Shown here: positions 10,401-52,995 of the stretch, one piece after another
How positions within the stretch are numbered: the first letter of the stretch is position 1
How the letters are laid out: the number at the start of each line of letters is the position of its first letter
NCBI RefSeq assembly: GCF_004010195.1
Contig: NC_057734.1
Coordinates: 29,919,564-29,983,563 of the forward strand
Length of the DNA stretch: 64,000 bases
Direction: 5' to 3'
Source of the DNA: Chiloscyllium plagiosum
Lineage: Eukaryota
Made by a program: the position numbers and the translations under genes
Notes under the pieces: model-generated
Told to the model about the DNA's origin: nothing
The model's input: the letters and a program-made list of their open reading frames with translations, nothing else
Database searches by the model: none

Positions 10401-13400
10401 CATCTGCACCTTTCCCAATCTCTCACCATTCACATAATCTGCCTTCCTGTTTTTGCTACCCAAGTGGATAACCTCACACTTATCCACATTGTTCTTCAAC
10501 TGCCATACATTTACCATGCACTCAACTTGTCCAAATAACACTGAAGCATATCGGCATCCTCCTCACAGTTCCCCCACCCTCCCTCCCAGCTTTGTGAATT
10601 GCAAATTTGGAGATGTTACATGTAGTTCCATCATCTAACTCATTAATACACATTGTCAGTAGCTGTGGTCCATGCTCTGATCCCTGCAGTATGCTAGTAG
10701 TCACTGATTGCCTCTCAAAAAAAAAAGACCTGTTTAATCCTTCTCTTTATTTCCCTGTCTGCCAACCAGTTCTATATCCGTGTCAGTACATTACTCTTAA
10801 TCCCATGTGCTTTAATTTTTCCTGCTAACCTCTTGTGTGGGACCTTCTGGAAAGCCTTCTGAAAGTCCAGGTATATCACATCCACTGGCTCTCCCTGATT
10901 AACCCCTCTTGTTAGATCTTTGAAAAATTCCAATATATTTGTCAAGTATGATTTCACTTTCATAAATGCATGCTGACTGTGTTAAATCTTGTTATTGTTT
11001 TCCAAATACTCAGCTTTTAAATCTTTTACATGGACTCTAGCATTTTCTCCACTATTGTTGTCAGGCTATTTGGTCTATAGTTCTGTTTTCCTCTCTACCT
11101 CCTTTTTTTAAAACAGAGGGGTTACATTAGCTACACTCCTATCCATTGGAACTGTTTCAGAATCTATAAAATCTTAAAAGATGAATACCAGTGCATCCAC
11201 TGTCACAAAAGAAAATTAACTTTAAAATTCACTGATAGCAATTGATCGTTCAATCTTTGTGGCAACCTTGATGTTTTTCGCTGTTGTTTGCATTTTGAAT
11301 AAAAATGTGCAATTCAGCAAATAGTGATTCCTGATGAAGGGCTTTTGCCCGAAACGTTGATTTCGCTGCTCCTTGGATGCTGCCTGAACTGGTGCTCTTC
11401 CAGCACCACTAATCCAGATTCTGGTTTCCAGCATCTGCAGTCATTGTTTTTACCTTAAAAAAACCCAGTGGATTAAAGAGAAAGGTTAGTTGGTTAGTTT
11501 TATTCCAGGATCATGAGATAGCCTAGATCTGACTGCCAAAATGATTACAATCCATTCAGGATTTTATTCAATTTGAAGAATATTTAGTGTCTTATTTTAT
11601 TTGGTCTGTGTCAATCATGTATAGCTTGTGAGAAGTAGTTGACATGCTAGCAAAGCTTTCAATTCCACATATTGAATTAACTTATTGATTATTGCATAGT
11701 CAGATACTGAAGACACAAAATCAATGATTAGTGGAACAGCTGCTCAAGAATTTCTGTCTCCCATGTATTGGGCCGACTTTCTTTCAATTGGGCACCCTTG
11801 TGATTAATCTTTCCCGGGCATTTTAGGTGTTTTTAAGGTGTATTCGCATTCTTATCCCGTATAGTTAGCCCAATTGATCAATACAATAATGTCAGTAAAG
11901 GCATACCTGTTGGTCTTTTTTCCTAAACATAAAACTCTAGAACGTGACCTGTCAGAAGTGCTCCCTGGATGTTGGAAATAAGAATAAGCCTTTCCATTGT
12001 GGATTTTGTAGAATCATAGAATCCTTACAGTGTGGAAATATGCCATTTGGCCCATCATATTGATACTGATCCTCTGAAGAGCATCCCACCCAAGAAACCC
12101 CCCCCCCCCCCCCAGGAAAAAGAAAATCCTAATATCCCAACATTTACATTGGCTAACTTACTTAGCCTGTACATCCCTGGATGCTACAGGCAATTTAGCA
12201 AGGCCAGTCCACCCAACCGGTACGTCTTTAGTCTGTGGGAGGAAACTGGAGCACCTGAAGGAAATCCACATATACATGTGGAGAATATGCAAACTTGAAA
12301 CGATCACCCAAGGCTGGAATTGAATCCGAGCCTCTGGTGCTATGAGGCAGCAGTGTTAATCACTGTGCCACCATGCTGCCCAATCTGTATGACTGTGCTG
12401 CCCTGTGTACTTTTATATATCTCTTTGATGTCAATTCATTTTCCTGTAATGGAGCCCAGACAAAATTACCACGTTCATTTATATTTCTGTTTCTGTTAAA
12501 GATTTAAGCAGCAGGGCTTGCTGACTGAGCTGTTCTGTTGGTTATTGTGGTTTTTGTTTATTTGCTCATGGGAAGTGGCTGTTTTTGGCCCATCCATCTC
12601 TAATTGCCCTTGAGAAGGGGATTGTGAGCTGCCTATTTGTTCTTGTGTGTAGGTAAGCTCTGTGTAGTTTGGAAGGAAGTTTTGGGATTTTCAGCCAATG
12701 ACATTGTGGAAATTGTAATATGGTTTCAAAGCAAGACAGTGTGTGGCCAGGGGAGCTACTGGCAGGTGGTGGTGTTCCCATGAGACTGCTGCTGTTATCC
12801 TTCTAGATTCTGGAGATTCTGGGTTTGGAAGGTGCTGTAGAAAGATGTTACTTGTTCTGAGAGTTAGATAACATTGATCCTGGTTTCTGGACATTCATTG
12901 TGTGGAGCATTCATTTAGTCCAACTTATGCTGTAGGGCATTATTCTACAGTTGCATCAAAAATAGTTGATCCCATCCTTGCATTAGATTTGCCAGTTAGG
13001 TTTACCATTGTGATGTGGTTTCCAGTTTGATGAATTGGGTACTAATGCACAAACAGAAGGTTTCAGATTCCAGAAATCTGAATAGGAAATGCTGAAAATA
13101 CTTCACAACTCAAGCAGCATCTCTAGAGTGAGAAACAGTTTCTGTAATGAACACTGAAATATTTGATCTTTTAAAACAAAACTTCGTCTTGCCTTTGAAA
13201 CAATTATTATGGAGTAGTGTGTTTGCTAAATGACTTTTTTTTGTTTGTTCCATTACAGTTGGTAGCAGATCCTCCCAAACTAGCAGAATATCAAGCTTAC
13301 ATTGACTTTGAAATGAAGGAAGGCGATCCAGCACGAATTCAGATAATCTTTGAACGGGCATTGTCCGAGAACTGTTTAGTGCCAGACTTATGGGCACGTT

Positions 13401-16400
13401 TCACTCTGTATCTGGTAAGGAATTTCCCTAAGAAAGTGACCTTTGGTTGAGCATTGGAGTATTATTACTGGTTTTTGTGAGCAGATATTGATTGGGGTCA
13501 TTGTTAGCCAGGAAACAAGCCAAATTCCCCTGCTCCTCTTAACCTAATACTATTGGATATTTTACATCTTGAGATTGAGATGTAGCCTTGGGTTTAAAAG
13601 GAGTCTGAGGAAATTGATTTTAATACAGAGATGGTCAGTTCATGGATTAGATTGGAGACATCAATCCTGTGAGCATTTTTGGGACCAGCTGAATGTTGTA
13701 ATATTGGGTTTTCTGATCATTCTGGATGGATAGATTAAGAATGGCGAATAGCACATTGGCATTTTGTCATTGGCAATGGAGATTTAAGCTAAAAGATTCC
13801 ATGGTCTGCTGGAATCTTATAGCACAGGCAGTCCCCAGGTTGCAAATGGAGTCTGCTCGTGGAAGTAGATTTGTATGCAAATTGGAATACAATGGAAAGC
13901 AACCGCTCGTAAGTGCAGGAAATATTTTTATGTGGGATCTTTAAAGATTGAAACCAAGTATAGGATCATGTTCATAAGTGCACGTTCCCTTAAGTAAATT
14001 AGGGACCCTGTTAGTGCCTGTTATCTTCAATAAATGCTGAGCAGTTTCAGACCACCACTTAGTTGGACTACAGAGAAACCTCCCTTCTGATTACACATTT
14101 TCCAAAGAAGACAGGACCTCTGACATATTGGTCCACCATTAGTTGGCAAGGTTTTAGAACGCCCATCCCAAATCCCCTTAGTAGACCGACTCTCATCATA
14201 AATAATCCTGTTTATTATAATGCAGAACATCTGTTCTTTGATTTGCTTTCAACAGGTAATATGCAGGGTGCCACTTTTTTCCTCTGAATAAAACTGAGAA
14301 TGTGAAATAAAGTGATTTGGTTCATTGATTTACCTTTAGTTGAATACATTAAAGTTTGTTTTCTGGAAATATAGTTTCTGCTGTTCTTTCACACTGAATA
14401 AAGTGATCGATTTCATGACTGTGGAACAGTGTACATAGACTTTTGTTGGAGTAGAGTTATGTGACATACTGCTTTATGATGTCTTTTTTCCTTGTACCTC
14501 TACACAATCTTGACTATTGATTTGATTCCACGCCATATACTGTTGTACGTTTGCCATTCCAGGACAGACAGCTGAAGATTAAAGATCTAGTTTTGTCTGC
14601 ACATGAACGTGCTGTTCGAAATTGCCCTTGGATAGTTGGGTTGTGGAAACGCTATCTTCTAGCACTGGAACGACACAGAGCTGAACACAAAGTTATAACA
14701 GGTAACCCTGTGCCAAGAACAGTACATTGTATTAGGAAAGCTTTAATTAGTTTTATGTTTAGGCAGAGAGAGCAGAATTCCTTCTAATTTACTTTCTAAT
14801 TTACTTTCATTCCTTTTTCCACTCAATCAAAATGAGTCCGGAAGACTGTAAATGATCGAGTCCTCATGGTTGTGTTGAGTGAACAAAGTTTAAAAATTAC
14901 ACAACACCAGGTTATAGTCCAACAGGTTTATTTGGAAACACTAGCTTTTAGAGCACTGCTCCTTGAATGAGCAGTGCTCTGAAAGTTTGTACTTCCAATT
15001 AAACCTGTTGGACTATAGCCTGCTGTTGTGTCATTTTTAACTTTGTCCACCCCAGTCCAATACTAGCATCCTCCTAGAAGGCTGAATGATCACGTTCCAG
15101 CTGCCATTTTATCTTACCAGTATGGGGAAGACTGTATCATGGGCAGTAGTTAAACTATCCTAAATTGAAAAAGAATAGTAAATCTCTGATTCATCTAATA
15201 GACTGCTTGGCACCCTGATTGGTGATAAAAGTGTGCCAAGTGGAGATGCCAAGGGATGGGGAGGAAGTATTTGGGCTGATTGAAACATGGACCACTATGT
15301 AATGGAGGAAATATTCTCTTCAGTGTGCAGAAGGTTGGAGGTGGATGATGCAATTTTTGGTGGTGTCCCTCTGGAGGTGTACAGAAATGATGGAGGACAA
15401 TCTGTTGCATTTTGGAGGCTGGGAGGGACAGTAGGTCAGAACAAGGAGAAACCTATTGTGGTTCTGAAGGGAGTGGAAGAATGACAACAGATGTGCAGAA
15501 AATGGGGCACATGTGGTAATGTAACTGTATACCGTGGAAGTGGCATCCATGTGGTTAAAGGTGAAGATAAGCATATCTGATATGAAATATCACATTGTCA
15601 ATACAAAGAAACTTGGAAAATATAATAGAATGCTGACAAGACACTGGGAGGAATTGTAGTCAGGATAGCTATGGAAGTTGATTCATGCATCACCTCAATG
15701 TGAGATGGATGTTTATAAAGTTTTAGGACATTGAATTATGACATTCTATGATATTGTATAGTTACTCTTAGATGTTACCTGTAGGAATAATATATATGGA
15801 ACTGACTGTGTTTTTATTGTAATTGATAGAAACCTTTGAAAAAGCGTTGAATGCTGGGTTTATCCAGGCTACAGACTATGTGGAGCTTTGGCAAGCATAT
15901 CTCGACTACCTGAGACGGAGAGTCAATTTCAGCCAAGGTACAGCGTAAAAGTGACCTGTCTTCATCTTTAGCCCTATCTCACTGACAATGTTATGAAACA
16001 ATGAGAAACTGTAAGTATGGTAATGGAAATGAAGTGATGTTGAAAATGGTAACTTCTGATTGGGGGAACAGTGTATCATCCTGCAGGAATGCTAAAGCTT
16101 GATACAGGTTAAAGATGTGAAGAATCAAATGTTGTTTATCTACAAAGTATTCAGCAACAGGTTGTGATAGTGAAAGTACTGGACTTGCAGGACTGGTCCC
16201 ATGCTGATGATCTTTTGGAAAATTGAAAGGTGATAGAAACTGAGGTACTGAATTGTGAAGTTGGAGTAGGTTGAGGTGAAATTTGGTGATGTGATGAAAT
16301 ACATAGTGGCTGAGGTTAATGGAGTTAGACTGCATCTTTTATTGACTGTTTAGGTGAGGTAGGGGTGAAATTTGATGCAAGATTAAATATAAGCAGTCAT

Positions 16401-19400
16401 AGTAATGGATAGGCTAACAGTTTTCAGATTCAGCCAAGGGATGGACTGGACTCTGTGGTTGTGTACAGCCTCGTTCAAGGTTGGGAAATTAAGTTGGCAT
16501 TAAAGAAACAGTTTTAGATGGGGGTAAAAATCTGCTTATCTGTTGTTAGGTTAGTGACAATTGTTGCTCAGTCTAAACCTGGATTGAATGAAGTTGTGTA
16601 GTAGTATAACAGGGTGTCATTAGCTTCTGGTCGCACAAATCAGGATTGTGGATAATTTTGCTGGAGGCAGGTGTGAAAGAAGCAACCAAGCTGAAATCTT
16701 AGGGGATTCTGGATGTGAGGGAGGAAAAGTTTTTTTTGAGGGGATGTCGTGTTGGGAGTGAGGGGAGGTGTGGCTGGTGGGGAAAGCATTTTGTTTTAAG
16801 GTTCATTGGTTGCACTGAGGCAGGCAGCAGTGGAGGGAAATAAGGTCAATCCTGTGGAGTTGGAACATGGAGGAAAGGTGGTGAAGGAAGATGGTGAGAC
16901 ATAAAGTTGAGTATTTTGAAAATACTGAGCACTGCAAGGGGGCACAAACTGCAATTCTTGTGGAAGTAGAGATCATACTGACTTCAAGTGCAAACTCAGT
17001 ATTGTGAACTGCATATGAACTAATTGAAAGGGAATTGACCAGGGAGTTGGAAATATACATGTGAATTGGTTGGCAACAGTACATTTGAAGACCTTTGAGA
17101 GAAAATATTTGAAAAACAAATGGACAGGGGAATTTTTGAATAGGTGATGCTGACTGTAGATTTGAAAGTGAAACATACAAATTTTGAACAAAGAGATCCA
17201 TTTGTGACTTCAGAGAGTTAAGTTAAGGAGTTCCAAATGTCACCTTAACATTTAGAGCTGGATCTGATTATAGAACCTTTCTGACTCAAAATAGTGAATG
17301 ACACTCAGCACCAAAGGGCCACAGCTGTTGTATCATTTTATGGTCATATTTATATATTTCTATGGCTTATTTGTAGCAAATGAAATACACCGTGTTTGAC
17401 TTTCCATCTGCCTGTTGTAGAATTACTGCAAATAGGAAGGAGTGGGAGATTTGAGTCACTAACAACTGACCTCTTCTTTAACAGGAGGTAGAACTGGATA
17501 GATGTTAATACATGGAGGCAATATTGTCTTCAGCTCTGAGATTCAAGACCATAACTTTATTTTACAAGATTGACCATGATGTGCCCTTCTTTCTCACTCT
17601 CTTTTTCTTTTTCCCTGTATATATGTGCTTTCCTGTTAATTTGTTGTCATTTTATTTGAATAGATTCCAGTAAAGAGCTGGAGGAGCTCAGATCAGCTTT
17701 CAGTCGTGGTCTTGACTACTTGAAACAGGATATAGAGCAACGTATGTTTGTGCTTTTATGTTTTAAATGTAAATTACTGTCAGGTTTGCTGTAGTCACTG
17801 ATTACTGTCATCAGTTAGTCATGAGCAATGTGATTTCTGCCATTTTCTGATGTACTTTGTATGTGTCACAGAACATTAGGCGAGCTTGAGGTGAAAGTTA
17901 TTTATTCCCTCCTTAAAGATCATTTCTTTTTAATATGTTATTCAACCCATTGTAGCATTCGGGTGTATTTTAAAATGTTGTATTATTTATTCGATTATTC
18001 TGTCAGGCAATTTAGATATTCATCACATTGGTCAGCTGGGAGCTTTGTTTTCTTAATCTACACTGCCTCTTATTTAGTTATTGCTGGGCGTGCTGTGTTC
18101 CACCTGTACTCTAGAACAGATTTATTTATTTTGACTGTTAAAAATGTAGAATTAATGGGCCTGTGTCAGAATTGTTAACTTCCTCACCACAGAATACCAT
18201 GCTTTTCAATTTTGCAGGACCTCAACATTGCCCAGTGAATAAATTGTTCAACACTAGTGAAGTTCTGTAGGACTAAAATTAGATGAATACTTGGAATAAA
18301 TTTATAGTTGAATAGGATATTTCCATCGTTTAAACTACAGTGGACACAGTTAACCAGATTACTTCCTTTTGTGCTGTAATGATTTGTGATGATAGCTGGT
18401 GTTCCTACATATTCCTCCCTGTGTTATTCAGAGCCCTACAGCAATTACCTTTAAACTACTTTTAGACTTTTATTTCTTTCTCAGATGCTTATTTCTTTAA
18501 ATATCTCTAAGGTGTAGAAGCAGAATAGCAAGTTAATACTATTATCTTCTGAAAGTGCCTAGAAAATATTATTTTACCATCTCAATTTAGTTCCATGTTA
18601 CAGATGTTGTCATTGAGTGGAAACTACATCAGCTGTCAACCCTGTCATAATTAGTAGCTTTGATACTGTTGCCTCACTTTAGTGGAAAATCTAAGTGTAA
18701 TTGGGCTTGAAAGGGAGTTGACATTACGCTAGTGGCAGCTCAGCCAGTGAGTACAGGGATGTTGCTGGCCCTTTGCAGAGTGTCTATGGTAGGTGCATTT
18801 GTTCCTTGCTTAATATATGGTGTTCTTTTACAGTTGCGCCAAATTTCTAATAGTTAGTGCTCTCACCATTTATTTAAATGCATTAATTTTTATCTCTTGT
18901 ATAATTCAGGACAGATGTTTATATTTGTAAACATATGTCGGTTGGTTTCAACGTACGTATGAAAGATATTGCTGCCTTAATTCCTAATTCTATCTAATAC
19001 TTTTCCTTGATTTTGGAGTTATTTGATTTATTCCCGAGTGAACTAGTTTTTAAATGATGGATGATTGGAAATTGACAGACTTCTGGCCTTGTTGCAGGAT
19101 TTGGTGAGAGTGGGGACCCCTCATGTACAATTTTACAGAATTGGGCAAGGATTGAGGTAAGACTATACACAGAACAACTGTGACCATACTTCAAACATTA
19201 GTAAGTAATAAGGACGTCAGTGAGACAGTCCTAGAACATGTAATTTCAAATATAAAGAGCAGATGCAAAGTATTACTTCTGTTTGGTTCATTGATGACTA
19301 TTTGAAAGGAAATGATGCACTAGTACATTAAAATATGTGTAGTACCTTTAGGAATGGTAGTTCTGTCTTCAAGGAGAAAGTGAGGTCTGCAGATGCTGGA

Positions 19401-22400
19401 GATCAAAGTTGAAACTTTATTGCTGGAACAGCACAGCAGGTCAGGCAGCATCCAGGGAACAGGAGATTCGACGTTTCGGGCACAGGCCCTTCTTCAGGAA
19501 TCCTGAAGAAGGGCCTGTGCCCGAAACGTCGAATCTCCTGTTCCCTGGATGCTGCCTGACCTGCTGTGCTGTTCCAGCAATAAAGTTTCAACTTAGTTCT
19601 GTCTTCATACAGGTGATGAAAAGATTTTTAGATTAACTTGGAAGAGGCTTCAGTTTAATAGATTCTGTTTCATTTTCTGAAAGCAATTGAGGCAATGGGG
19701 AAATTTTACCAGGAAGCAATAAATTCTGTTTTCAGCTGTAATAAATTCCCAGCAATGTCTTATCATTTGACCTTTTGATTTTGAATAAATATCCCAGATA
19801 AATAAACTTCTAGATGACAGTTCCCCATTGTTTGGAATACTTTTGCCTGGATTTGATTATTGGAAGTATCATGATTATTGTGATCACCTATGCACTTACA
19901 ATGATATATTATTTTCTAGGCAAGGCTCTGTAAAAATATGCAGAAAGCCAGAGAAATCTGGGACAGAATCATGACCAAAGGAAATGCAACATATGCCAAC
20001 ATGTGGTTGGAATATTACAATTTAGAGCGGTAAGAGCATCAGTCTTTTATCACACAGCAGTCTATTTGTATTTTTCACAAGCTATCCTTCATCCTTGTCT
20101 GAAGATCAAATCTAATCTGGTAGTATAGTCTACAAGCAGTGGATGCTTTTACTGCTGTATTGCCATTCCTTATAATCTCTACCACAGGGATAGGTTGCAT
20201 CCAAACTGTGTGCGGATCAAGCTCCTAGCAGAATGCACTGAAAGGATTATGGAAAGAAATTTCACAAGTAAAGATAGAGAGGGGGTGGGTGGATGGAGTA
20301 ATAAAATAACAATTTAAAAAATCGAGAGAGATGCCATTAAAAGCTTATACCTTGTTAAAACGTCTTTAGGAATTAATACCATATCAGATAAGAAAGAAGC
20401 AAGACTATTGAAAATAATTATGGCTACAGGACTAGAGAGACTTTTGATAAAGAAAATGACACTGGATTTATGGGTTTCATAAAAGGTGTCATAACTGTCA
20501 ATGTTTGTGTATGTACTTGGATATATTATAGCATTTGACCTACTTTGTATTTGCATGTTGCAGAGCTCATGGCGACAGTCAACACTGCAGAAAGGCCTTG
20601 CATCGAGCAGTACAATGTACCACCGACTATCCTGAGCATGTCTGTGATGTGCTGCTTGCCTTTGAAAGGGTGGAGGGTGAGTTATTGTAAAATGATAAGC
20701 GCTTGATTTTTAAAAAACCCAGAGTCCTTGGAGGTGATTATGAAGCTGAAAATGAAGCGAGGCTGAGTGAACACGAAGCTGTTAATACAGTCCCTGCCTG
20801 TGCTGTTATTTGTGAAATGTTATTTCTGAAACTGAGTTATATTGAAGACAGTGGATGAGAGGCCTCGGGGTAATATTTACATGAATCCAGGAGTCTCTTT
20901 CTCCCAATGACTTAATACAAATGCTGTCACATTCCCATGGACTCTGAGAAAGTTGATGTACTGCTTGGAACCTGTTGCAGATATAAATCTTTTTCCAGAG
21001 TGCACCTCACTAATTTCCATGTGACAGGTCTACTGAGTAGCTGCATTTGGCTACTTCAACTAAGTGTCATCTTTATCTTGTTAGAAGACCTTGTCACTGC
21101 ACATTTATTGCCAAGAATCAAGATTCTACTTATGGATAGTTAAATGCAGTTACAGTATTGCATTGTCTCATCGAACAGTTGTGATAAGTTCTTTCTCAAA
21201 CTATGGAGCAAATGCCGTTGGATGGGGGAAGCCTCAGGTTCTTCTGCTTTGTAGTTTCATAGAAATTGAAAGAATTTTGACATATTCTGCCTTCAAAAAT
21301 GCTGCACTTTCTTATCTTCAGTGAATGAACTATCCCAATGACATCACAAATAAATGCTATACATATTTAATATTCAAGAGTGTGGGTGCTGGAAAAACAG
21401 CAGGTTAGGCAGCATCCGAGGAGCAGGAGAGTCGCAATTTCGGGCATAAGCCCTTCGTTAGGAATCAGTTAGGAATCATTAGGAAACGCCGATTCTCCTG
21501 CTCCTCGGATGCAGCCTAACCGGCTGTGCTTTTCTAGCACTACGCTCTCGACTCTGATCTAGCATCTGCAGTCCAAACTTTCTCCCATATTTTAATATTC
21601 ACTCATATAGACCTTATGATACCAGATTCCATTCCTGCACTATGATTAATTAGTTGATTAGAAACAAAAATTGTTTCTGCGCTGGATGGAAACTATATTT
21701 GTGAGGGGGTTTTGGTTAAGGATAGGATCAATTTGTGTTATCAAACTCACAAAAGTAAGTTATTTCTAGATCATTAAGCTCAGCTTCTTGAGAGTTGTAC
21801 AGTGTTAAATAACCTGTCACCTTGCACTGTATGAAATTGCACACGTGAAATACCCACTAGTATGAAATGCCAGAGAACTGGGACACCAAATAGGTGTACT
21901 CAGCCTTTAGGAGAGATGAGCTGTAAAGCATAGAGGGGAAGAAGGATTTTTAAGGAAGTATGAAGACATGAAGTACAATAAATCATCATCCTATTATACA
22001 AAGTTAATGAAATGTCAGCTTGACTCATCTAGGTAGCACCCTCAGAAGGGTCAGAAAGGTTGTGGATTTAAAACCTGCAATAATTGTGAGAATGTTAACT
22101 ACGATGACACTTCAGTGCTGTACAACGTGAGATGAGATGTTAAGCCAAAATCTCGTGAATGTGTTATGTGATAACAGGCTCTGTTGGCAGATTGGTAGTG
22201 TAGTGTAGCGCAGGGTTCATGTCCACCCTGTTCCAGAGGGAATTCTAACATCTCTGAAAAGATTGGTGAAGAAGAAAATCAAGGAGTTTCCCAATATCCT
22301 GGAAACATTTTTTTTCATTGCCATTAAAAACAATTATCTGATCATTCGTTAATTTACTGCATTCAAATTGGGCTGCCATATTTGCTTCAACTTGACTCTT

Positions 22401-37614: not shown

Positions 37615-37931
37615 CTGAAATTAAAAATCAGTTTCTAATTTAAATGGAGCAAAATGTACCACATAGTCAGTAATGGATGAGATTTGTGGTCATTTGTAAT
37701 TACTACACAGGATAATCAGATCTTCAGCCAACTGTAACCCATTATGTCAAATGTCACAGACTGACTGCAAAATGGACTTTTGTTCTGGATTTCTGTATCC
37801 AGTTACTTTGAAACAAGTCACCTACCAGTCAATGAATATTAAAAGTTTGGCAGAACAGACAGCAAAATCTGGGACTTGGTATGAATGCATTCAGCTATCA
37901 GTACATGTGGTATTGCACAGATCCACAACAC

Positions 37932-38056
37932 GATGTGGAGGTGCTGGTGCTGGACTGGGGCGGACAAAGTCAGAAATCACACAACACCAGTCCAACAGTA
38001 CAGGCCAACAGGTTTATTTGAAACCACAAGCTTTCAGAGTGCTGCTCCTTCATCAG
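37932..38056 (-). mobile_element. Family B Penelope-derived fragment with hammerhead motif
   Basis: Minus strand: CTGATGA AGGAGC AGC ACTCT GAAA GCTT gtg. Confidence 0.65.
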
Positions 38057-38365
38057 TGGAAGTGTATACTTATTCACAAATAATTAGATTATCTGAAAAA
38101 TGATAGCCACTAGTTACATAACTGTGGACAGAGTGCCAAGATAATCTCCTACTGGGAATTGGTTAAAAGAAGCAGGAAGTAGAAAATTCAAAAGAGAGCA
38201 CATCCACTGATTAAATTTTATAGAATTCAAATGGCCATAGTCACATACAGTTGTCATAAATAACACAATGCAAATCATCAACTCTCTCAAACAACATTAT
38301 ATCCTATGTTTACACAAAATATTGATAGGTTGCAGCCATGTGGAACGGCCCGTAGCTGGATAATT

Positions 38366-39345: not shown

Positions 39346-39713
39346 AGCTGGATAATTCTCTAACATCATTCATTTCTGCTCCTGCCTAAACCTTGAAAGA
39401 GTAAGCCACAGACCTTTGAATCTACAGACCGATGTACCTTCTAATTTATTTTTGTAGTGCGATGGCAATATATTTATACATGTGGGCCTTTAAAATAGTT
39501 TGTGTAGTAAACTGGGCCAACATGTGCATGCCAATTTTTGACAATTCGAATGGCTGCCTGGTCAGCCAACATCTGTCATTCTCCATAAACTTACAAACTA
39601 CATTCTGAACTTGCACTAATTACCATTCAGACTGTGCCTGCTCACCCAGACTGACTCCCACTACCCAAATGTTAAAATTCCCAATGCTTGATCACTGCCA
39701 TAATTATACTCTT

Positions 39714-39840
39714 AAGACAAAAAGAACACATATACTGGAATCCAAAGCAGACAGGCAGGAAACTGGAAGAACATAGTAAGCCAGGGAGTATCGGGAGGTG
39801 GAGAAGTTGATGTTTTAGGTGTGACCCTACTTCAGGACTT
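39714..39840 (-). mobile_element. Family A-related pLTR fragment
   Basis: Similar to 62879-62980 in reverse; degenerate CTGAAGTA GGGT cac ACCT AAAA core. Confidence 0.5.
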
Positions 39841-40759
39841 GGGGGGGGGGGCGCACAGTGAAGTGGGGATAGGTGAAGGCTAGTAGACAGTACGACCTGA
39901 TTATAGTCCTTCCGAGGTAAGCTAACCCCTCCAGCTCCATAACCCTTTGAGAATGCAACATACCTCCAATGCTAGTCTGGCAACTAAAGTCTTCACCTAT
40001 CCTCAGTTGGAGAATTTCATTCCTAAACCTTGTCTTCTGTTTATCCTCCTTTAACCTCCCCTTAAAAAAATACAACTGAACAAGCTTTGGGTCACCTCTG
40101 GCTCAGTGTTAATTTTGTGGTCTGCTACTGGAATGTTTTACTGCGTTCAAGGTGTGGACCAGAAAAGGTGAGGAGGAGATTCACCTAGATGTTGGCTGGG
40201 CAGGAGTGATACAGTCTACTACAAATTCCTCTCAGCAAAGAAAACTGAGACACCTGAATGAAGTGTGCAAAGTTATGAGGGGCCGAGCGTGGATAGGGAG
40301 AAACTCTTCTCTCAGTATAGGGCTCAGGAGACAGTTTTAAAGTAAGGAACTGGTAGTTGACAGGGGATTGGAAGAAAAAATAAAGTCATACTATAGGCAC
40401 CTGGAGCTCACTGCCTAAAAGGGTAGCAGAGACCGGAAACCTCAAAACATTTATGTAGTATCTAAATAAACTCCTCACACGCCACTGCATATGAGGCGAC
40501 AAGCCAAGGGACCTGCTATTTAAAAAAAAACTACGTCTCTCTCAACGCTATTTGTTGCTGGGGAAAGTGAAGTAGTTTTAAGAAGTTGTTGAGGATCCAG
40601 ATATTAATGGCCACGACAAGAGGAAGGGGAATGCTGGAGGCTGTGGCAACTGCCCAGTATGATGCCCCAAAACCTTCGATGCAGCTCAAAAACAAAAGTT
40701 AAAAATCACAACACCAGGTTATAGTCCAGCAGGTTTATTTGGAAGCACTAGCTTTTGGG

Positions 40760-43508
40760 AGATGTTTGCAGGTAAAGGGACGGCTGAAAAATGGGAAGCC
40801 TTCAGAAATGAGATAACGAGAATCCAGAGAAAGTATATTCCTGTTAGGGTGAAAGGAAAGGCTGGTAGGTGTAGGGAATGCTGGATGACTAAAGAAATTG
40901 AGGATTTGGTTAAGAAAAAGAAGGAAGCATATGTCAGGTATAGACAGGATAGATCAAGTGAATCCTGAGAAGAGTATAAGGGAAGTAGGAGTATACTTAA
41001 GAAGAAATCAGGAGGGCAAATAAGGTTAAAGAGAATCCAAAGAGTTTTTACAAATGCATTAAGGACAAAAGGGTAACTAGGGAGAGAATAGGGCCCCTCA
41101 AAGTGGAGTTCCGCAGGGATCAGTTCCTCTGCTGTTTGTAATTTTTATTAATGACTTGGATGAGGGAGTCGAAGGGTGGGTCAGTAAATTTGCAGATGAT
41201 ACGAAGATTGGAGGAGTTGTGGATAGTGAGGGCTGCAAAGGGACTTAGATATGATGTAGAGCTGGGCTGAGGAGTGGCAGATGGAGTTCAACCCTGCCAA
41301 GTGTGAGGTTGTCCATTTTAGAAAGACAAATAAGAATGCGGAATACAGGGTTAACGGTAGGGTTCTTAGTGAGGTGGAGGAACAGAGGGATCTTGGGGTC
41401 TATGTTCAAAGATCTTTGAAAGTTGCCACTCAGGTGGATAGAGCTTGTAAGAAGGCCTATGGTGTATTAGCGTTCATTAGCAGAGGGATTGAATTCAAGA
41501 GTCGTGAAGTGATGTTGCAACTGTACAGGACTTTGGTTAGGCCACATTTGGAGTACTGTGTGCAGTTCTGGTCGCCTCACTTTAGGAAAGATGTGGAAGC
41601 TTTGGAGAGGGTGAAGAGAAGATTTACCAGGATGTTGCCTGGAATGGAGAATAGGTCGTACGAGGATAGGTTGAGAGTGCTAGGCCTTTTCTCGTTGGAA
41701 CGGCGAAGGATGAGGGGTGACTTGATAGAGGTTTATAAGATGATCAGAGGAATAGATAGAGTAGACAGTCAGAATTTTTTTCCCTGGGTACAACAGAGTG
41801 TTACAAGGGGACATAAATTTAAGGTGAAGGGTGGAAGGTATAGGGGAGATGTTAGGGGTGGGTTGGGGGCATGGAATGCGCTGCCTGTGGGAGTGGTAGA
41901 GTCAGAATCTTTGGTGACCTTTAAGCGGCAATTGGATAGGTACATGGATGGGTGCTTAAGCTAGGACAAATGTTCGGCACAACATCGTGGGCCGAAGGGC
42001 CTGTTCTGTGCTGTATTGTTCTATGTTATAAAGATCACCAAGATGGCCTTTGTGTGGAGCCGCAGAAAATGGGGGAAGATACAAAATGAGTATTTTGCAT
42101 CAGTATTTACTGTGGAAATGGATATGGAAGATATGATTGTAGGGAAATAGATGGTGACATCTGGTAAAATGTCCCTATTACAGAGAAGGAAGTGCTGGAT
42201 GTCTTGAAATGGGTAAAAGTGTATAAATCCCTAGGACCAGATCAGGTGTACCCCAGAACACTGTGGGAACCTAGAGAAGTGATTGCTGGGCCTCTTACTG
42301 AGATATTTATATCATTGATAGTCACAGGTGAGTTGCAGGAAGACTAGAGGTTGGTTAACGTGGTGTCACTGTTTAAGAAGGGTGGTAAGGACAAGCCAGG
42401 GAACTAGAGATCAGTGAGCCTGACATTGGCGGTCGGCAAGTTGTTGGAGGGAATCCTGAGGGACAGGATGTACATGTATTTGGAAAGACAAGGACTGATT
42501 AGGTCAACATGGCTTTGTGTGTGGGAAATCATGTCTCACTAACTTGATTGAGTTTTTTGAGGAAGTAAGAAAGAGGATTGATGAGGGCAGAACAGTAGAT
42601 GTGATCTATATGGATTTCAGTAAGGCGTTCGACAAGGTTCCCCATGGGAGACTGATTACCAAGGTTAGATCTCACGGAATACAGGGAGAACTGGATCAAA
42701 GGTAGAAGACAGAGGGTGGTGGTGAAGGGTTGTTTTTCAGACTGGAGGCCTGTGACCAGTGGAGTGCTACAAGGATCGGTGCTGGGTCCTCTAATTTTTG
42801 TCATTTACATAAATGATTTGGATGCGAGCATAAGAGGTACACAGTTAGTAAGTTTGCAGATGACACCAAAATTGGAGGTGTAGTGGACAGCGAAGAGGGT
42901 TACCTCAGATTACAACAGGATCTGGACCAGATGGGCCAATGGGCTGAGAAGTGGCAGACGGAGTTTAATTCAGATAAATGTGAGGTGCTGCATTTTGGGA
43001 AAGCAAATCTTAGCAGGACTTATACACACAATGGTAAGGTCCGAGGGAGTGTTGCTGAACAAAGACCTTGGAGTGCAAGTTCATAGCTCCTTGAAAGCGG
43101 GGTCGCAGGTAGATAGGATAGTGAAGAAGGCATTTGGTATGCTTTCCTTTTTATTGGTCAGAGTATTGAGTACAGGAGTTGGGAGGTCATGTTGCAGCAG
43201 TACGGGACATTGGTTAGGCCACTGTTGGAATATTGTGTGCAATTCTGGTCTTCCTATCGGAAAGATGTTGTGAAACTTGAAAGGGTTCAGAAAAGATTTA
43301 CAAGGCTGTCGCCAGGATTGGAGGATTTGAGCTATAGGGAGAGGCTGGTGCTGTTTTCCCTGGAGTGTCAGAGGTTGAGGGATGACCTTAGAGGTTTACA
43401 AAATTATGAGGGGCATGGACAGGGTAAATAGTCAAAGTCTTTTCCCTGGGGTCAGGGAGTCCAGAACTAGATTTAGGGTGAGAGGGGAAAGACATAAAAG
43501 AGACCTAA
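40760..43508 (+). mobile_element. CR1-clade LINE ORF2 fragment interrupted by a younger CR1 copy
   Basis: RT motifs CLTNLIEFFE, YMDFSKAFDKVPH and KFADDTK; host frame ...gggcccctcaaag| resumes at about 42031. Confidence 0.85.
41104..42030 (+). mobile_element. 5'-truncated young CR1-clade LINE (nested)
   Basis: 227-aa ORF 41281-41964 (FNPAKCEV, RPHLEYCVQFW, RGDLIEVYK) followed by 3'UTR and ttctatg tail. Confidence 0.85.
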
Positions 43509-43520
43509 GTCTCTTTTACT

Positions 43521-43610
43521 CTGCACCCAGAGTGACACGCTACAGCTCCCCATTAAGATCAGAGCAGGAGATTGCAGATCCTTATGAACATGAGGCTGCA
43601 GATCTGCACT
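43521..43610 (+). repeat. 90-bp direct repeat, copy 1
   Basis: Matches 44479-44568 with 5 substitutions. Confidence 0.85.
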
Positions 43611-44245: not shown

Positions 44246-44422
44246 CAAAGTTAAAAATCACTCAACTCCAGGTTTATTTGGAAGCACTAGCTTTCGAAGC
44301 GCTGCCTCTTCATCAGATAGTGGTCTGATGATCCACCTCATGAAGAGGCTGCGTTTTGAAAGCTAGTGCTTCCAAATAAACCTGTTGAACTATCACCTGG
44401 TGTTGTGTGATTTTTAACTTTG
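44246..44422. mobile_element. Family B Penelope-derived inverted-repeat element just upstream of FICD promoter
   Basis: caaagttaaaaatcac / gtgatttttaactttg arms; minus strand CTGATGA AGAGGC AGC GCTTC GAAA GCTA GTG hammerhead. Confidence 0.75.
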
Positions 44423-44478
44423 CAACAGCTGGTCACAATCCCTGAGACAGGCAAACACAGACACACTGCAGCTCCCCA

Positions 44479-44568
44479 CTGTACCCAGAGTGACACACTG
44501 CAGCTCCCCATTAAGATCAGAGCAGGAGATTGCAGATCCTTATGAACATGAGACTGCAGATTTGCACT
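44479..44568 (+). repeat. 90-bp direct repeat, copy 2, within a degenerate roughly 33-nt minisatellite
   Basis: cagagcaggagactgcagatcc-like units continue to about 44650 and again at 46153-46230. Confidence 0.8.
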
Positions 44569-44709: not shown

Positions 44710-46150
44710 ATAAGTAGATGAATCTCAAAGGTCAAATGAATGGTATCCAGCGTTGTTAAATGAGGCAAAGGAGGACAGAGCAGTGGCAATTCCTCCCTGG
44801 CCACAGGAAGTTTGCTGGAGGACTGGAGGTTAGCCAATATTATACTGTTATTCAAGAAAGGACCAAAGGTTAAATCGGGAAACTACAGGCCAGTGGTGGG
44901 GGAAACTATTGGATGCAATTCTGAAGGACAGAATTACAGTAATCGATGGAACAAAAACAGTCAGTACGGCTCTGCTAAGAGAGGTCACGTCTGAACAACT
45001 AGATTAAATTTTTTTGAAGAGGTGACCAGGTGTGTAGAAGAGGGCAATCAATGCTTTTGATGTAGTCTGCTTGAACTTTAGCAAGCTTTTTGAAAAGCTT
45101 CCTCATGCGAAACTGATAACAAAATGTAAGAGCCCATGGGATCCAAGGAAATTTGGTAAATTGGACCCACAATTGGCTGAATGACAGGAAATAGGGGTTG
45201 ATGGTTGAGGGATTTTGTTTCCCAACTCAGGTCAGTGTTGGGACCCTTGCTGTTTGTGGTTTATAAAAATGATTTAGACTTGAATGCACAATGGTTGGTC
45301 AGTAAATTCACAGGTGATAAAAAAATGTTGGGGTGGTAAATAGTGAGGAGGATCGCCTTGGATTACAGGAGGATGAGGACAAGCTAGTCAGCGACAAATG
45401 GATTCAATTTGGATAAATGTGAGGTGATGCGCTTGGACAAGAAAAACAAGGCAAGAGATTACATAATCAACAGTAGGACCATGGGAAGCACAGAGAGTCC
45501 AAAAGACTTTGATATACACTGGTCCCTAAAAGGTACACGGCAAGTGGATAATGTGGTTAAGAAGACAAATGGCATACTCGCTTGTATTAGCTGAGGTTTG
45601 GAGTTTAAGAGCAAGGAGGTTATGCTGAAACTGAATAAAATGTCAGTCAGACCTCAGCTATTGTAATTTTGGAATTCATATTTTTAGAGGGATTACAATG
45701 GGGATGGTGCAGAGGAGATTCACCAAGATACTGCCTGGGCTGGAGAGTTTTAGTTACGATGAGAGATTGAATAGACTGGTATTGTTTTCCTGAGAAGAGA
45801 TTGAGAAAGGACATTCCTGAAATGTAAAAAATTGAGGAGTATGGATAGTGTAGACAGGAAGAAACTTTACTCCTTGATGGAGGAATAAATCAGGGGATTT
45901 GGATTTAAGGTAAGGAATAGGGGATGTGAGGAAAAACATTTTCACCCAGAGGATGGTATGAATCTGGATCTCACTGCCTGTGAGGGTGGCCTGATAATAT
46001 TTACAAAGTATTTAAGATATGCACTTGTGATGCCAAGGTATACAAGACAATGGACCAAGTACTGGAAAATGGGATTACAGTTGTTTTCAACTGGCACAGA
46101 CACTATGGGTCAAAGGATCATTTTCTGGGCTGGCAATCTTTATGATTCTG
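44710..46150 (+). mobile_element. Decayed CR1-clade LINE
   Basis: EDWRLANIILLFKKG...GNYRPV and DKCEVM remnants with frameshifts. Confidence 0.8.
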
Positions 46151-46912
46151 TGACTGCAGGCAGATCTCCAATGAGCAGATCAGAGCAGGAGACTGCAGAT
46201 CCCCACTGAACAGATCAGAGCAAGAGACTGGGGATGTTAGAGACATAAAATAGAAAGTTCTTGAGTCACTCCGCTTTTGAGGTGAAAGAGACTGGAAACT
46301 GATGGTGATTGGGGGGAGGGGAAGGAGGGAGTGAGGGAAGAGAAGGAAGGGAGAAGAAGGGAAGAGGAGGAATGGAGAAGGAAGAAAGAGGTGGAAGAAT
46401 CACCTGGATGAGTGCAGCTCCAACAACAATCCTCAGTTAAGAAAAGGAAAGATATTGGAGATGCATTGTGAAAGATCTTTTGCTCAGGGCACCCTCACCA
46501 TCTGTTTCATTAGCACCTCCAACACCTTTGTCAAAGGAATGAAAACCATAATTTTCCAGCCCCCATCAGCACCAAAGATTATTCATATTGGTCTTAACTT
46601 TGTTTCTTTCTCCATATATGCTGCTAGACCAGGTGAGTATTTCCATTTTTTAAAAAAAATTCCAACATTTTACTTTTGTATAAAAAATGAAACCTTTTCA
46701 TCAGTCCCATGGTGTTTTATTCAGTGATCACTTCACTATGTCCAGCTCAAGCCACTGAAGGTTATCCATTCATCAACAGCAGATGCCACCAATCATACAA
46801 AAGCCTTAAAAAAAAGAGCTCAAAGAAAATTGCTGCAATTTTACTGCTAACTGGAAACAGTGAACTATCATGCATTAGAAAACATACAAGTGCAACTCAT
46901 GCTACACAAAAC

Positions 46913-47001
46913 AATGATGTGGAGGTGCCAGTGTTGAACTGGGGTGAACAAAATTAAAAATCACAAAGTTATAACATGGTGTTGTGTGGTATTTAACTTT
47001 T
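46913..47001. mobile_element. Minimal family B element (collapsed arms)
   Basis: gatgtggaggtgccagtgttg tail plus short inverted arms; 10-bp TSD tacacaaaac at 46903-46912 and 47002-47011. Confidence 0.7.
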
Positions 47002-47124
47002 TACACAAAACTAAATGAAGTTACAAAAGCAAGGCACAGATAAAAAGTTGGAAACAAGTGTTAGTTTGCTTCACCTAGTTAACATTGCCACTGTTCTTTC
47101 ATCACATCCTTTATCTTTCTGTGG

Positions 47125-49275
47125 TCCTAAGGGAAGAGTACTAAACTGGACCAAGGCCAATTATATCAAAATTAGGCAGGAACTGGGAAATGTGGATTGG
47201 ATACAACTATTTGAAGGGAAGTCCACATTTGATATATGGGAGGCTTTCAAAGATAGGTTAAAGATAGTGCAGGATAGGCATGTCCCGTTAAAAGCAAAGG
47301 ATAGTAAAGGCAAGATTTGTGAACTTGGGATGACAGGAGAAATTGTAAGATTAGCCAGGACGAAAAGGAAAGTGTACATAAGGTCCAGTCTGCTAAGAAC
47401 AGAACGGGCCCTGGAGGAATATCGGAAGAGTAGGAGCAGTCTTAAATGAGGAATCAAGCGGGCTAAAAGGGACCGTGAAATTGCTTTAGCAAGCAGAATT
47501 AAGGAGAATCCCAAAGCCTTTTATTCTTTTATAAGAAACAAGCGGGTAACTAGATAAAGGATTGGTCCACTAAAGGATAATGAAGGAAGGCTGTGTGTCG
47601 AATCTGAAACAATGGCTGAGATTCTGAATGATTGCTTTGCATCAGTGTTCACTGAGAAGAGGGACATGATAAATGTTGAGATTAGAGATAGAAGTTTGAT
47701 AACTCAAGGTCACATTGACATAAGTAGGAAAGATGTGTTGGGTAGGCTAGAGTTTATTAAGGTGGACAAATCCCTAGGACCGGATGGGATCTATCCCAGG
47801 TAGCTGAGGGAGGTGAGAGAGGAAATAGCTGTGGTCCTGACAGATATCTTTGTAGCATCCTTAACAGAGCTGAGGTACCAGAGGACTGGAGGATTTTCAT
47901 GTTGTCCCCTGTACAAGAAGGGTAATAACTGCAAGACCAGTGAGTTTGATGTCAGTGGTGGGAAAGTTGCTGGAGAAGGTACTGAGAGATAAAATCTATT
48001 TATATTTAGAAAAGAATGAGCTTATCAGTGATAGGCAACATGGCTTTGTGGGGGGTGAGATCATGCCTTACCAATGGAGTTCTTCGAGGAAGTGACCAAG
48101 TTGAAGGAAGGGCTGTAGATGTCATATACATGGACTTTAGTAAGGCGTTTGATAAGGTTCCCCATGGTAGACTAATGGAGAAAGTGAAGTCACATGGTGT
48201 GCAGGGTGTTCTAGCCAGGTGGATAAAGAACTGGTTGAGCAACAAGCGACAGACAGTAGTAGTTGAAGAGAGTTTCTCGAAATGAAGAAAGGTGACCAGT
48301 GGTGTTCCACAGGGATCAATGCTAGGGCCACTGTTTTTGTGATATACATAAATGATCTGGAAGAGGGAACTGTTGGTATGATTAGCAAGTTTACAGATGA
48401 CACAAAGATTGTTGGAGTAGCAGAAAGCATAAGGGACTGTCAAAGAATACAGGAGACTATAGATAGACGCACCACTGGGTGGAAAAGTGGCAGATGGATT
48501 TCAATCCAGGCAAATGTGGTGATGAATTTTGGGAAGTCTAATTCTAGAGCGAATTATACAGTAAACGAAAGAGCCTTGGGAAAAGTTGATGAGCAGAGAG
48601 ATCTGGAAGTTCATGTCTATTGTACCCTGAAGGTTGCTGCACAGGTGGATAGAGTGGTCAAGGTAGCATATGGTATACTTGCCTTCATCGGACAGGATAT
48701 TGAGTATAGAAGATGGCAGATCATGTTAAAATTGTACACGACATTGGTTCGGCCATATTTAGAATACTGTGTACAGTTCTGGTCGCCACATTACTAAAAA
48801 GGATGTGGACTCTTTGGAGAGGGTGCAGAGAAGGTTTACGAGGATGTTGCCTGGTATGGAAAGTGTTAGCTATGAAGAGAGGTTGAGTAAGTTAGGTTTG
48901 TTTTCATTAGAAAAAAGGAGACTGAGGGGAGACATGACTGAGGTCTACAAAATGAAGAAGGGTATAGACAGGGTAGATAGAGATGAGCTTTTTCCCAGGG
49001 TGAAGGATTCAGTAAGGAAAGGTCACGCTTTCAAGGTGAGAGGTGAAAAGTTTAAGACGGATACATGCGACAAGTACTTTACACAGAGGGTGGTAAGTGC
49101 CTGGAACATGTTGCCAGCAGTGGTAGTAGAGGCAGGCACAGTAGGTGTGGAGCAGAGAGATACAGATGCTTAGGAATTGGGCAACAGGTTTAGGCAATAG
49201 ATTTGGATCGTCTCAGGCTTGGAGAGCCAAAGGACCTGTTCCTGGGCTGTAAATTTTCTTAATTCTTTGTTCTTT
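47125..49275 (+). mobile_element. CR1-clade LINE ORF2 (frameshifted)
   Basis: LNWTKANY, DKSLGPDGIYPR, YMDFSKAFDKVPH, SKFTDDTK, RPYLEYCVQFW; ttctttg tail. Confidence 0.88.
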
Positions 49276-50544: not shown

Positions 50545-52995
50545 CTGGGAAGAAGTTGTCCTGGAAGTTCTCAACATCGACTCCAGACCCCATGAAGTCT
50601 TATGGCATCAGGTGAAACATGGGCAAGGAAACATCCTGCTGATTATCACATATTGTCCTCCCTCAGTTGATGAATCAGTACTTCTAGTGGGGGATTTCAA
50701 TGTCCAGCACCAAGAGTGGCTCAACAATAGCAGTATTGATTGATGGTCAGGCCCTAAAAGACACAGCTACTAGATTGGTCTGTGGCAAAGGAGAGGGAAC
50801 CAACAGTAGGGAAAAACATATTTGACCTCAACCATACAAATCTGCTAGCTGCAGCTGCATCTGTCCATGACTTTATCAGTAAGAGTGACCACTGCACAGT
50901 CCTTGTGGAGATGAAGTCATGCCTTCACATTGAGAATAACCTCTATTGTGTTATGTGGCACTATGACTGTGCTAAATTGGACTGACTTCAAACAGATATT
51001 GCAACTCAAGACTCAGTGAGCCATCAACAGCAGAATTGTACTCCAGCACAATCTGCAACATCCTGATGAAGGGCTTTTGCCCAGAATGTTTATTTTCCTG
51101 CTCCTCGGATGCTGCCTGACCTGCTGTGCTTTTCCAGCACCACTCTAATCTACCTTGCCAATCTGCAACTTCATGACCTGGGATATCTCCCATTCAACCA
51201 GTACCATTTAGCCAGGGAATGAATCCTGGTCCGATGGAGAGTGCATGACGGCATGACAGGAGCAGCACCTGGTATTCCTAAAAATGAAGTGTCAACCTGA
51301 TGAAGCTATGCCGAACGGCATAAGCAGAAAGCGACAGACAGGGTTAAACAATCCCACAACCAACAGATCAGTTTTATGCTCTGCAGTCCTGCCACATCCA
51401 GTCGTGATGGTGATAGTCAATTAAACAACTCACTGGAGGAGAAAATTTCACAATTATCATCAAAGATGGACAAGCCCAACAGAAATGCAAAAGACTGAAG
51501 CATTCACAGTAATATTTAGCCAGAAGTGCCAACTGTGTGATCCATCTTGGACTCCTCCACTGGTCCCCAGCATCACAGATACCAGTCTTCAGCCAATTCG
51601 ATTCGCTTCGTGTGATATCAAGAAATGGTTGGAGGCAACGGGTACTGCAAAGATGATGAGCCTCATCAACATTTTGACCATAATACTGAATACCTGTACT
51701 CCAAAATTTGCCAGTCCTTTAGCCAAGCTGTTCCAGTATAGTCATACCATTAACATTTACTCGACAACATGGAAAATTGTCCAGGCATCTCCTCTACAGA
51801 AAAAGCAGGACAAATCCAACCCAACCATTTGCTGCCCCATCAGTCTACCCTTGATCATCAGTGAAGTGATGGAAGGGCTCATCAACAGTGCTATCAAGCA
51901 GCACCTAATCAGCAGTAACCTGCTCAGTGATCAGAGGGGAGCATAACAGCCGTATTTGACTCGTGAGATTAAGGAGCCCTAGCAAAACGAATCAATGGGT
52001 ATCGTGGGCAAATTCTCCCCTCTGAGTCATACCTGGCACATAGGAAGAGGATTGTTGTAGTTGTCAGAGGTCAATCATCTCAGCTCCAGCACATTTCTGC
52101 AGGAGTTCCTCAGGGTAGTGCCATCAGCCAACCATCTTCAGCTGTTTCACTGACCTTCCGTCCATCTTAAGGTCAGAAGCAGAAATGTTCAATGATTGCA
52201 CAATGTTCAGCACCATTCATGACTCCTCAGAAAGTGAAGCAATCTATTTTCACTTGTAACAATATCCAGGCCTGGGCTGACCAGTAGCAAGTAACATTTA
52301 CAGCGTACAAATGCCAGGCAATGACCTTCTCCAATAAGAGACAATTTAACTGCCACCCCTTGGCATTCAATGGTGTTACCACCACCGAATGCCCCACTGT
52401 CAACATTCTCGTGTTACCAGTGACCAGAAACTCAACCGAAATTGCCATATAAATACATTGGCTACAAAGCAGGTCAGAGACTAGGAACACTGGTGAGAAA
52501 CCCACCTCTTGACTCAGCGAAGCCTGTCCATCATCTACAAGACACAAATCAGGAGTGTAATAGAATACTCCCACTTGCCTCCAACAACACTCAAGACGCT
52601 TGACACCGTCCAGGTTAAAAGTAGCTTGCTTGATATGGCACAAACATCCACTTGTTCCACCACTGATGTTCAGTAGCAGCAGTATGTACTATCTCTAAGA
52701 TGCACTGCAGAAATTCAAAGATCCTTGGACAGCACCTTCCAAACCCACAACCACTTCCATCTAGAAGGACAAGGGTAGCAGATAAATGACAGTACCACAA
52801 TTTGCAAGCTCCCTTTCAAGCCACTCACCATCCTGACTTGGAATATCCTGGAATTCTGTCTCTCAGGGCATTGTGGGTCTACTTACAGCACGTGGACTGC
52901 AGCAATTCGAGAAGGCAACTCATCAACACCTTCTCAAGGGCAAGTAGGGACAGGCAATAAATGCTGGCCAGCCAGCGATGTCCATGTTCCATAAG
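50545..52995 (+). mobile_element. Decayed LINE (CR1/L2 group) nested in older CR1 fragments (about 49380-53460)
   Basis: Endonuclease remnants LVGDFNV and SDH; RT remnants PLAKLFQYS, KKQDKSNP and AGVPQGS; 3' tail gggcaataaatgctggcc shared with local SINEs. Confidence 0.75.
51060..51158 (+). mobile_element. Family A pLTR fragment inserted in LINE
   Basis: CTGATGA AGGGC TTTT GCCC followed by a mutated GAAA; 11-bp TSD caatctgcaac at 51049-51059 and 51159-51169. Confidence 0.75.

Follow-up and report, generated by a model that had tools for sequence, protein, structure and literature searches.

Three families of short repeats (A, B and C), each carrying a minimal hammerhead ribozyme motif, are interspersed through a 64,000-nucleotide (nt) stretch of the genome of the shark Chiloscyllium plagiosum (RefSeq assembly GCF_004010195.1, contig NC_057734.1, positions 29,919,564 to 29,983,563 of the forward strand; hereafter the window). 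Family C is a 5′-truncated Penelope/Poseidon element and no mini-unit, and families A and B, judged by their architecture, probably represent terminal modules from other Penelope-like elements (PLEs). All three are likely dead, PLE-made insertions, the short A copies (stubs) being run-off copies; we place the probability of this combined reading at about 0.6. A first-pass annotation of the window had instead suggested that A and B are retrozyme-like units that amplify independently.

The link to PLEs is most direct in family C. Both C loci (Table 1) extend 200-500 nt into the end of an open reading frame (ORF), a frame opens at hammerhead stem II, and the GIY-YIG endonuclease remnant of C2 matches a zebra shark protein with reverse transcriptase (RT) and GIY-YIG regions (P0003; tblastn, E = 3e-58). 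P0003 has weak Pfam matches to GIY-YIG and RVT_1, and 22,780 relatives at E ≤ 0.001. The RT domain itself is absent from the window, where both C loci are truncated. C1 and C2 represent different subfamilies (145/178 aligned bases). Separately, one TGA of the core repeat is missing from the minus arms of both (30935-30990 and 38380-38430), despite the different subfamilies. The annotated shark host proteins P0001, P0002, P0004, P0005, P0007 and P0008 end in family C endonuclease sequence, and P0004 also contains a family A copy read antisense; these cases are either exonizations or annotation artefacts.

Self-BLAST and profile searches of the window recovered 16 loci with 24 arms, in all 3,719 bp or 5.8% of the sequence, divided among family A (4 loci), A-related copies (3), B (7) and C (2). 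Six to seven weak profile matches (E > 0.003) were excluded, and the total is close to the 'about 14 copies or fragments' of the first-pass annotation. Weak profile matches to the A tail at 13048-13135 (minus strand), 27279-27311 and 46596-46645 were left uncounted; these are probably older, decayed relatives. The families cannot be aligned with one another (local alignment scores 13-20), in keeping with the earlier view that they are unrelated.

Table 1 Hammerhead-bearing repeats and associated features in the window. A dot in the strand column marks inverted or palindromic loci; TSD, target-site duplication.
Feature	Position	Strand	Description	TSD
A1	11327-11455	+	Solo stub extending from hammerhead through tail; intact core and ACGU (11331-11358)	None found
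A2	19372-19593	.	Head-to-head palindrome, turn at 19500; tailed minus arm, tail-less plus arm; both cores intact (19470-19497 minus, 19503-19530 plus)	14 bp, 19358-19371 / 19594-19607
A3	21377-21590	.	Inverted; both cores damaged	21366-21376 / 21591-21601
A4	51060-51158	+	Solo, tail-less; GAAA box damaged	51049-51062 / 51159-51172 (1 mismatch)
A-related copy	39722-39910	-	Decayed hammerhead, stem II GGGU/ACC-type; about 70 nt further upstream, pyrimidine-rich	
A-related tail	62199-62635	+	Preceded by pyrimidine-rich stretch and 41-codon open remnant (62199-62321)	
A-related stub	62878-62975	+	Begins inside stem III region; inserted in CR1-like fragment	
B0	14879-15072	.	Palindromic; turn inside hammerhead	
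B1	37930-38062	-	Solo tailed stub; core and AGCU intact (38028-38056); stem I one base out of register	
B2	44248-44416	.	Inverted, both arms tail-less; minus arm with intact hammerhead (44288-44316)	11 bp (1 mismatch)
B3	40695-40757	-	Tail-less stub; begins inside stem II	
B4	198-231	+	34-bp tail-less B end; no hammerhead	
B5	3297-3424	.	Inverted, turn downstream of cleavage site; no hammerhead	13 bp (1 mismatch)
B6	46913-47001	.	Inverted, tail region only	10 bp, exact
C1	30920-31450	.	Inverted 5′-truncated Penelope/Poseidon copy; both arms reach ORF end; both hammerheads damaged	
C2	38366-39343	.	Inverted 5′-truncated Penelope/Poseidon copy; hammerhead 39233-39266, stem III mutated to ACAU	14 bp, 38352-38365 / 39344-39357 (1 mismatch)
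GIY-YIG remnant of C2	38384-38898	-	Frameshifted endonuclease remnant on C2 long arm	

The three families share an insertion layout. TSDs of 10-14 bp (0-1 mismatch) flank 7/16 loci, a score that random intervals reach once in 300, and half of the loci (8/16) are inverted, with the tail on one arm only in seven of these eight; the inverted form is seen in A, B and C. Both features had been described in the first-pass annotation (TSDs as 10-15 bp) and are borne out. Inverted centres vary from locus to locus, so the second arm was likely made at insertion; the arms of A2 are identical at 98/100 positions, and short pieces of the stem I edge are repeated at the junction of A3. The distance from hammerhead core to end is 125, 126, 127 or 113 nt in modules with a tail and 86-96 nt in tail-less modules, which stop earlier by the length of the tail (30-40 nt); the 125-127 nt spacing is common to A and B. 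A downstream stem of 7-9 bp and family-specific sequence is predicted to close the 3′ part in 7/9 folded modules, with its 3′ strand in the tail and the tail-less ends falling in its loop. Family A has at least three tail subfamilies.

Protein searches, one of them with an antisense frame of A, turned up no coding partner for A proper or B, so the PLE origin of both families rests on this architecture and on two A-related copies. Those copies (39722-39910 and 62199-62635) run upstream of the hammerhead, which argues against the independent A mini-unit first proposed. The 41-codon remnant at 62199-62321 resembles what we take to be the C terminus of a Neptune-type endonuclease, an assignment unsupported by protein searches, in which the remnant had no match. 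The Penelope-derived origin of the earlier proposal thus stands for C, through its endonuclease remnant, and is suggested by architecture for A and B.

The hammerhead motif has the same layout throughout: CUGANGA, one extra nucleotide, stem II (4 bp in A, 4-5 bp in B), GAAA, a 4-nt palindrome and H. A scan of the window for CUGANGA..GAAA gave 15 raw matches. A strict descriptor (core, stem II of at least 4 bp, palindromic stem III, U16.1-H17 and stem I of at least 2 bp) matched four arms (11331 plus, 19503 plus, 19497 minus and 44316 minus), compared with a mean of 0.005 and a maximum of 1 in 200 dinucleotide shuffles. This rules out a chance origin and supports the assignment to minimal, dimer-type PLE hammerheads made in the first pass. 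The motif is reached by 19 arms, of which five (A1, the two arms of A2, B1 and the minus arm of B2) retain an intact core and palindrome and 14 are damaged; five further arms, all B, stop short of it. Among the eight sites originally listed as full hammerheads, four hold up: 11331 and 19500 in family A, both with ACGU, and both B sites, 38040 and 44300, with intact core and palindrome. The other four are damaged, in the core at A sites 21450 and 51063. The ACGU stem III reported for family C is incorrect, as 31371 and 39233 read ACAU, C3 is U at 31371, and none of the four C arms is intact. An Rfam search, proposed earlier as a check, gave no hammerhead family among five matches at E ≤ 5, as expected for motifs without helix III.

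Several further measures bear on the fold. The minimum-energy structure of the A2 minus arm consists of stems I and II, and the self-complementary ACGU and AGCU form weak predicted 4-bp duplexes (-1.7 and -2.5 kcal/mol). Co-folding of two hammerhead copies gives a minimum-energy structure that differs from the dimeric active fold, a result that carries no weight either way. Covariation across eight A-type arms was not above shuffles (145/500 for pairs changed on both sides, a count in which one stem I pair crosses a 2-column gap). By eye, stem II of B2 differs from that of B1 by one two-sided and one one-sided change, and the stems of C1 and C2 differ by one-sided changes. A stretch of LINE (long interspersed nuclear element)-like sequence at 51297-51330 also shows CUGAUGA..GAAA around a long stem, but was left out of the hammerhead set because U16.1 and stem I are missing.

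The 5′ ends set the families apart. In family A, the start or turn of each of the four loci lies no more than about 4 nt from C3. In family B, by contrast, 5′ ends and turn points spread across about 70 nt, from about -16 to +55 counted from the core, and 3/7 loci have no hammerhead at all; the B loci resemble heavily truncated copies whose upper length limit lies close to the motif. Public sequence data were compared for family A only, with A1 as the reference copy (window positions 11230-11529, identity ≥80%). Two contig sets (X3 and X1) gave 39,268 and 28,620 aligned contigs and a third run (X21) gave 1,510 RNA reads, while a fourth (X22) gave none; summed contig depth was not used as copy number. 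The RNA runs are poly(A) single-cell libraries, a type that would miss small or circular RNAs and is unsuited to revealing shared molecule ends, and X21 had no position at which molecules commonly begin or end. The largest classes of 5′-side loose ends fall at 11327-11328 in every run (882 and 297 contigs in X3, 651 and 201 in X1, 428 reads in X21), and both opposite-strand and back-jumping joints return to 11327. Agreement over 30 letters at these loose ends is only 0.31-0.42, so most copies lack a long common upstream sequence; A1 being flanked by host DNA, the class at 11327 combines genuine ends with copies that continue. The sharp edge at stem I makes a defined template end likely for A and speaks against all copies being random truncations, the outcome that the first-pass annotation had named as refuting its proposal. 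In each of the three runs the last letters of the loose-end consensus at 11327 are CCTC-like, and ATTC follows in the window; the combination fits an initiator consensus with +1 at 11327. No copies start at the predicted cut site, either in the window or among the loose ends listed, which fits uncleaved templates. As an observation of its own, single contigs carry tandem duplications of the hammerhead, with joints from 11357-11368 back to 11323-11331 and a period of 34-40 nt; such duplications might allow dimerization in cis, and their origin may lie in template jumping from one stem I strand to the other, which it resembles.

Variation among the A copies points to constraint on the motif. Among the variants listed, only 1/25 non-CpG core and stem positions varies in ≥5% of reads, compared with 4/7 free hammerhead positions (p = 0.004) and 26/93 downstream positions (p = 0.014); the variants at this level lie at N7, loop II, H17 and downstream. 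CpG decay affects G12 in 11-12% of copies and the palindrome in 8-19%. Since variants avoid the core and stems while CpG decay hits the copies, the motif appears to be constrained in source elements and decaying in copies.

These features would be accounted for by a single insertion scheme. By analogy with PAc, a Poseidon element of Anolis, the PLE protein would nick AT-rich DNA and start reverse transcription inside an uncleaved RNA at two stem-loop sites, giving two 3′ ends and a TSD. Two copies of the start site would be present in the PLE transcript, one close to the 5′ terminus and the other at the 3′ terminus. Priming at the 3′ copy would produce long, random truncations into the endonuclease, as in C, and priming at the 5′ copy would run off at the RNA end after about 130 nt, just ahead of stem I, as in A; B would combine 5′-copy priming with further premature stops. 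Every insertion event would build its own inverted arm, through fold-back where the new copy joins the target. The hammerhead would matter in the source element only, through dimer cutting by way of the 4-nt palindrome or with protein help, and dispersed stubs would decay neutrally. That the A stubs arose by run-off, as short copies of the element RNA from its 5′ terminus, has, by our estimate, an even chance of being correct. That they place the start of the PLE mRNA at the opening base of hammerhead stem I, where an initiator motif would lie, is a distinctly more tentative suggestion. If it is true, the ribozyme lies in the first 35 nt of the transcript and its cleavage would remove the cap, acting as an off-switch and no replication step; internal priming at the 5′ copy would then yield vast numbers of 130-bp dead insertions with no need for a non-autonomous element.

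Several observations weigh against this account. Some A copies continue upstream of 11327 with shared letters, so the edge is not absolute, and the upstream consensus can also be read as a pyrimidine tract with an AG 12 nt ahead of the edge, as would suit a splice acceptor. G precedes the edge at A1 and A3, yet 11326 is absent among the loose ends listed, leaving the idea of a cap-templated G unsupported. No coding partner was identified for A proper or B, the B 5′ ends are scattered, and whole-module folding z-scores are modest (-2.9 to +0.2). The putative N terminus of C did not align with a full-length relative of 832 amino acids by BLASTP. Under-calling close to alignment ends, private changes of the reference copy A1 and the restriction to the variants listed all reduce the force of the variant test.

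The best-surviving alternative, though an unlikely one, is that A (perhaps also B) is a non-autonomous mini-element resembling a short interspersed nuclear element (SINE), 130 nt long, with an internal promoter, transcribed from its dispersed copies and moved in trans by PLE proteins. A fixed 5′ edge and fixed 3′ ends define a unit of constant length, the tail subfamilies and the very high abundance in both contig sets would suit such an element, no coding partner was found, and non-autonomous PLE derivatives are known in Chlamydomonas (PMC8557442). However, part of the copies continue upstream, and A-related copies reach into a stretch resembling an untranslated region and an ORF remnant. RNA reads lie over A in either orientation, and 99% of them pass into unlike sequence, the pattern of passengers carried in host introns. 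PAc, moreover, needs 172 nt of ORF, past the insertion end (PMC11167929), so stubs would lack the signal to move again.

Somewhat less probable still is an origin of A and B by ordinary premature truncation of copies begun at the 3′ terminal repeat, in which case the pile-up at stem I would mark a barrier, a fold-back or microhomology hot spot, or a splice junction. B ends are indeed scattered like random truncations, the two stem I strands share short sequence, back-jumping joints of 34-40 nt occur, the intron of Drosophila virilis Penelope ends at the 5′ edge of helix I (PMC4209133), and acceptor-like letters precede the edge in the loose-end consensus of X21 and X3. A structural stop, however, would be expected 3′ of the hammerhead, yet A copies cross the whole motif and stop behind it, and C copies likewise traverse theirs, continuing for another 200-500 nt; a spliced template should bring one and the same upstream exon to the copies, whereas loose-end agreement is low.

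Very improbable is the reading of A and B as non-LTR (long terminal repeat) retrozymes, in which tandem units are cut by dimeric hammerheads, circularized and reverse-transcribed: the type I hammerheads with palindromic stem III, a report of retrozymes related to PLE terminal repeats in one chondrichthyan genome (bioRxiv 10.64898/2026.07.22.740005) and tail-to-head joints in a few contigs speak for it, but none of the 16 loci is a head-to-tail tandem, each joint is confined to one contig (depth 10-57, where the summed depth runs to millions) and the break points differ, copies are not circularly permuted, AT-rich, unrelated flanks with nothing in common follow the tail at 11455 (agreement 0.34; 318 and 216 contigs), and known retrozyme RNAs measure 170-400 nt (PMC7229834). 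With no tandem array in the window and no fixed, high-depth tail-to-head junction for A1 in X1 or X3, the term retrozyme is unsupported; the scattered B ends and varying inverted centres likewise go against the independently amplifying, retrozyme-like A and B of the first-pass annotation. RNA from the inverted loci is predicted to form one long hairpin (about -100 to -207 kcal/mol), and with one arm in sense per transcript, no ribozyme dimer would arise in cis there.

Palindromic stubs such as B0 would give long hairpin RNAs when located in introns. The B0 region at 14930-15000 has a weak Rfam match to mir-9457 (41 bits, gathering threshold 90), a sub-threshold score explained by its palindromic hairpin. 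At 5.8% of the window, PLE stubs would be a source of intronic hairpin RNAs and of spurious exons in gene models of sharks.

The surrounding DNA is vertebrate. A FICD-like exon encoding Fic and TPR domains lies at 36533-37627 on the minus strand, and an RRM exon at 28151 on the plus strand is presumably SART3. The nearest named relatives of one repeat-derived peptide are from Hemiscyllium, Stegostoma and Chiloscyllium. The A and B DNA patterns had no match across viral contigs, and 17 metagenome and 9 prokaryote-genome pattern matches were dismissed as chance (≤34 aligned bases each). Other repeats include a short interspersed family in four copies (9815-10156, 12018-12384, about 26870-27175 on the minus strand, and 61556-61837), which we assume to be HE1/V-SINE-like, and many LINE fragments (41170-43430, 45290-45760, 48000-49170 and 62740-63150), which we take to be CR1-like; B3 and the A-related stub at 62878 sit inside such fragments. 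A 90-bp direct repeat (43521-43610 and 44479-44568, 94% identical) flanks the GC-rich FICD-like 5′ region and the B2 insertion, and a run of 81 N (60566-60646) lies within a GA/GT microsatellite.

The shark families add to a hammerhead class described in 2014. Cervera and de la Peña (PMC4209133) reported solo motifs from truncated PLEs, thousands of them in coelacanth and Xenopus, with some opposite-strand pairs. The window's motifs share with these minimal hammerheads the type I core without helix III, the extra nucleotide between 9 and 10.1, the G10.1-C11.1 pair, the palindromic 15.2/16.2 positions and the presence of several families per genome. They differ in having a stem II of 4-5 bp, compared with 7-8 bp in Schistosoma; abundance in the shark looks higher, and the available portion of that paper neither names sharks nor describes a pile-up of 5′ ends at stem I. 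Our literature search, which covered papers and not the repeat databases Repbase and Dfam, found none on shark PLE hammerheads or on 5′-edge clustering. For the role of PLE hammerheads, the sharp A edge offers a useful handle: if the edge is the RNA start, the ribozyme sits at the cap and the solo minimal hammerheads of vertebrate genomes would be by-products of internal priming. In D. virilis, Penelope has an internal promoter with a start close upstream of the hammerhead (PMC4209133, PMC2377424).

Likeness to PAc extends from the motif to the insertion. PLE proteins nick AT-rich DNA, prime inside the RNA and run to the template 5′ end in vitro; in PAc, reverse transcription begins at two stem-loop sites lying 111-118 nt into the ORF, and this gives rise to the tail, while insertion is equally efficient with a dead ribozyme, so that cleavage is not needed (Frangieh et al. 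2024, PMC11167929). An inverted arm combined with a tail is a known PLE layout (Craig 2021, PMC8557442; Arkhipova 2013, PMC3846280). Shared with these systems are the hammerhead at the junction of pseudo-LTR and ORF, ends about 110-130 nt downstream, an optional tail of 30-40 nt, the terminal stem-loop, AT-rich targets, TSDs and the inverted, 5′-truncated arm; family C also shares the GIY-YIG domain and the frame starting at stem II. In contrast to PAc, A and B have no linked ORF, and A units are confined to what lies downstream of the stem I edge; in vivo run-off from a 5′ copy of the start site is our own suggestion and is not taken from the PAc work. Non-LTR retrozymes (Cervera and de la Peña 2020, PMC7229834; Li et al., bioRxiv 10.64898/2026.07.22.740005) are likewise short and non-coding, have type I hammerheads and include many solo monomers, some of which may themselves be PLE stubs. 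The definition of retrozymes, which Li et al. derive from PLE terminal repeats and report from one chondrichthyan, rests on tandem units that each contain a hammerhead and on linear or circular RNAs, whereas the shark copies stand solo or head-to-head, with PLE tails and TSDs.

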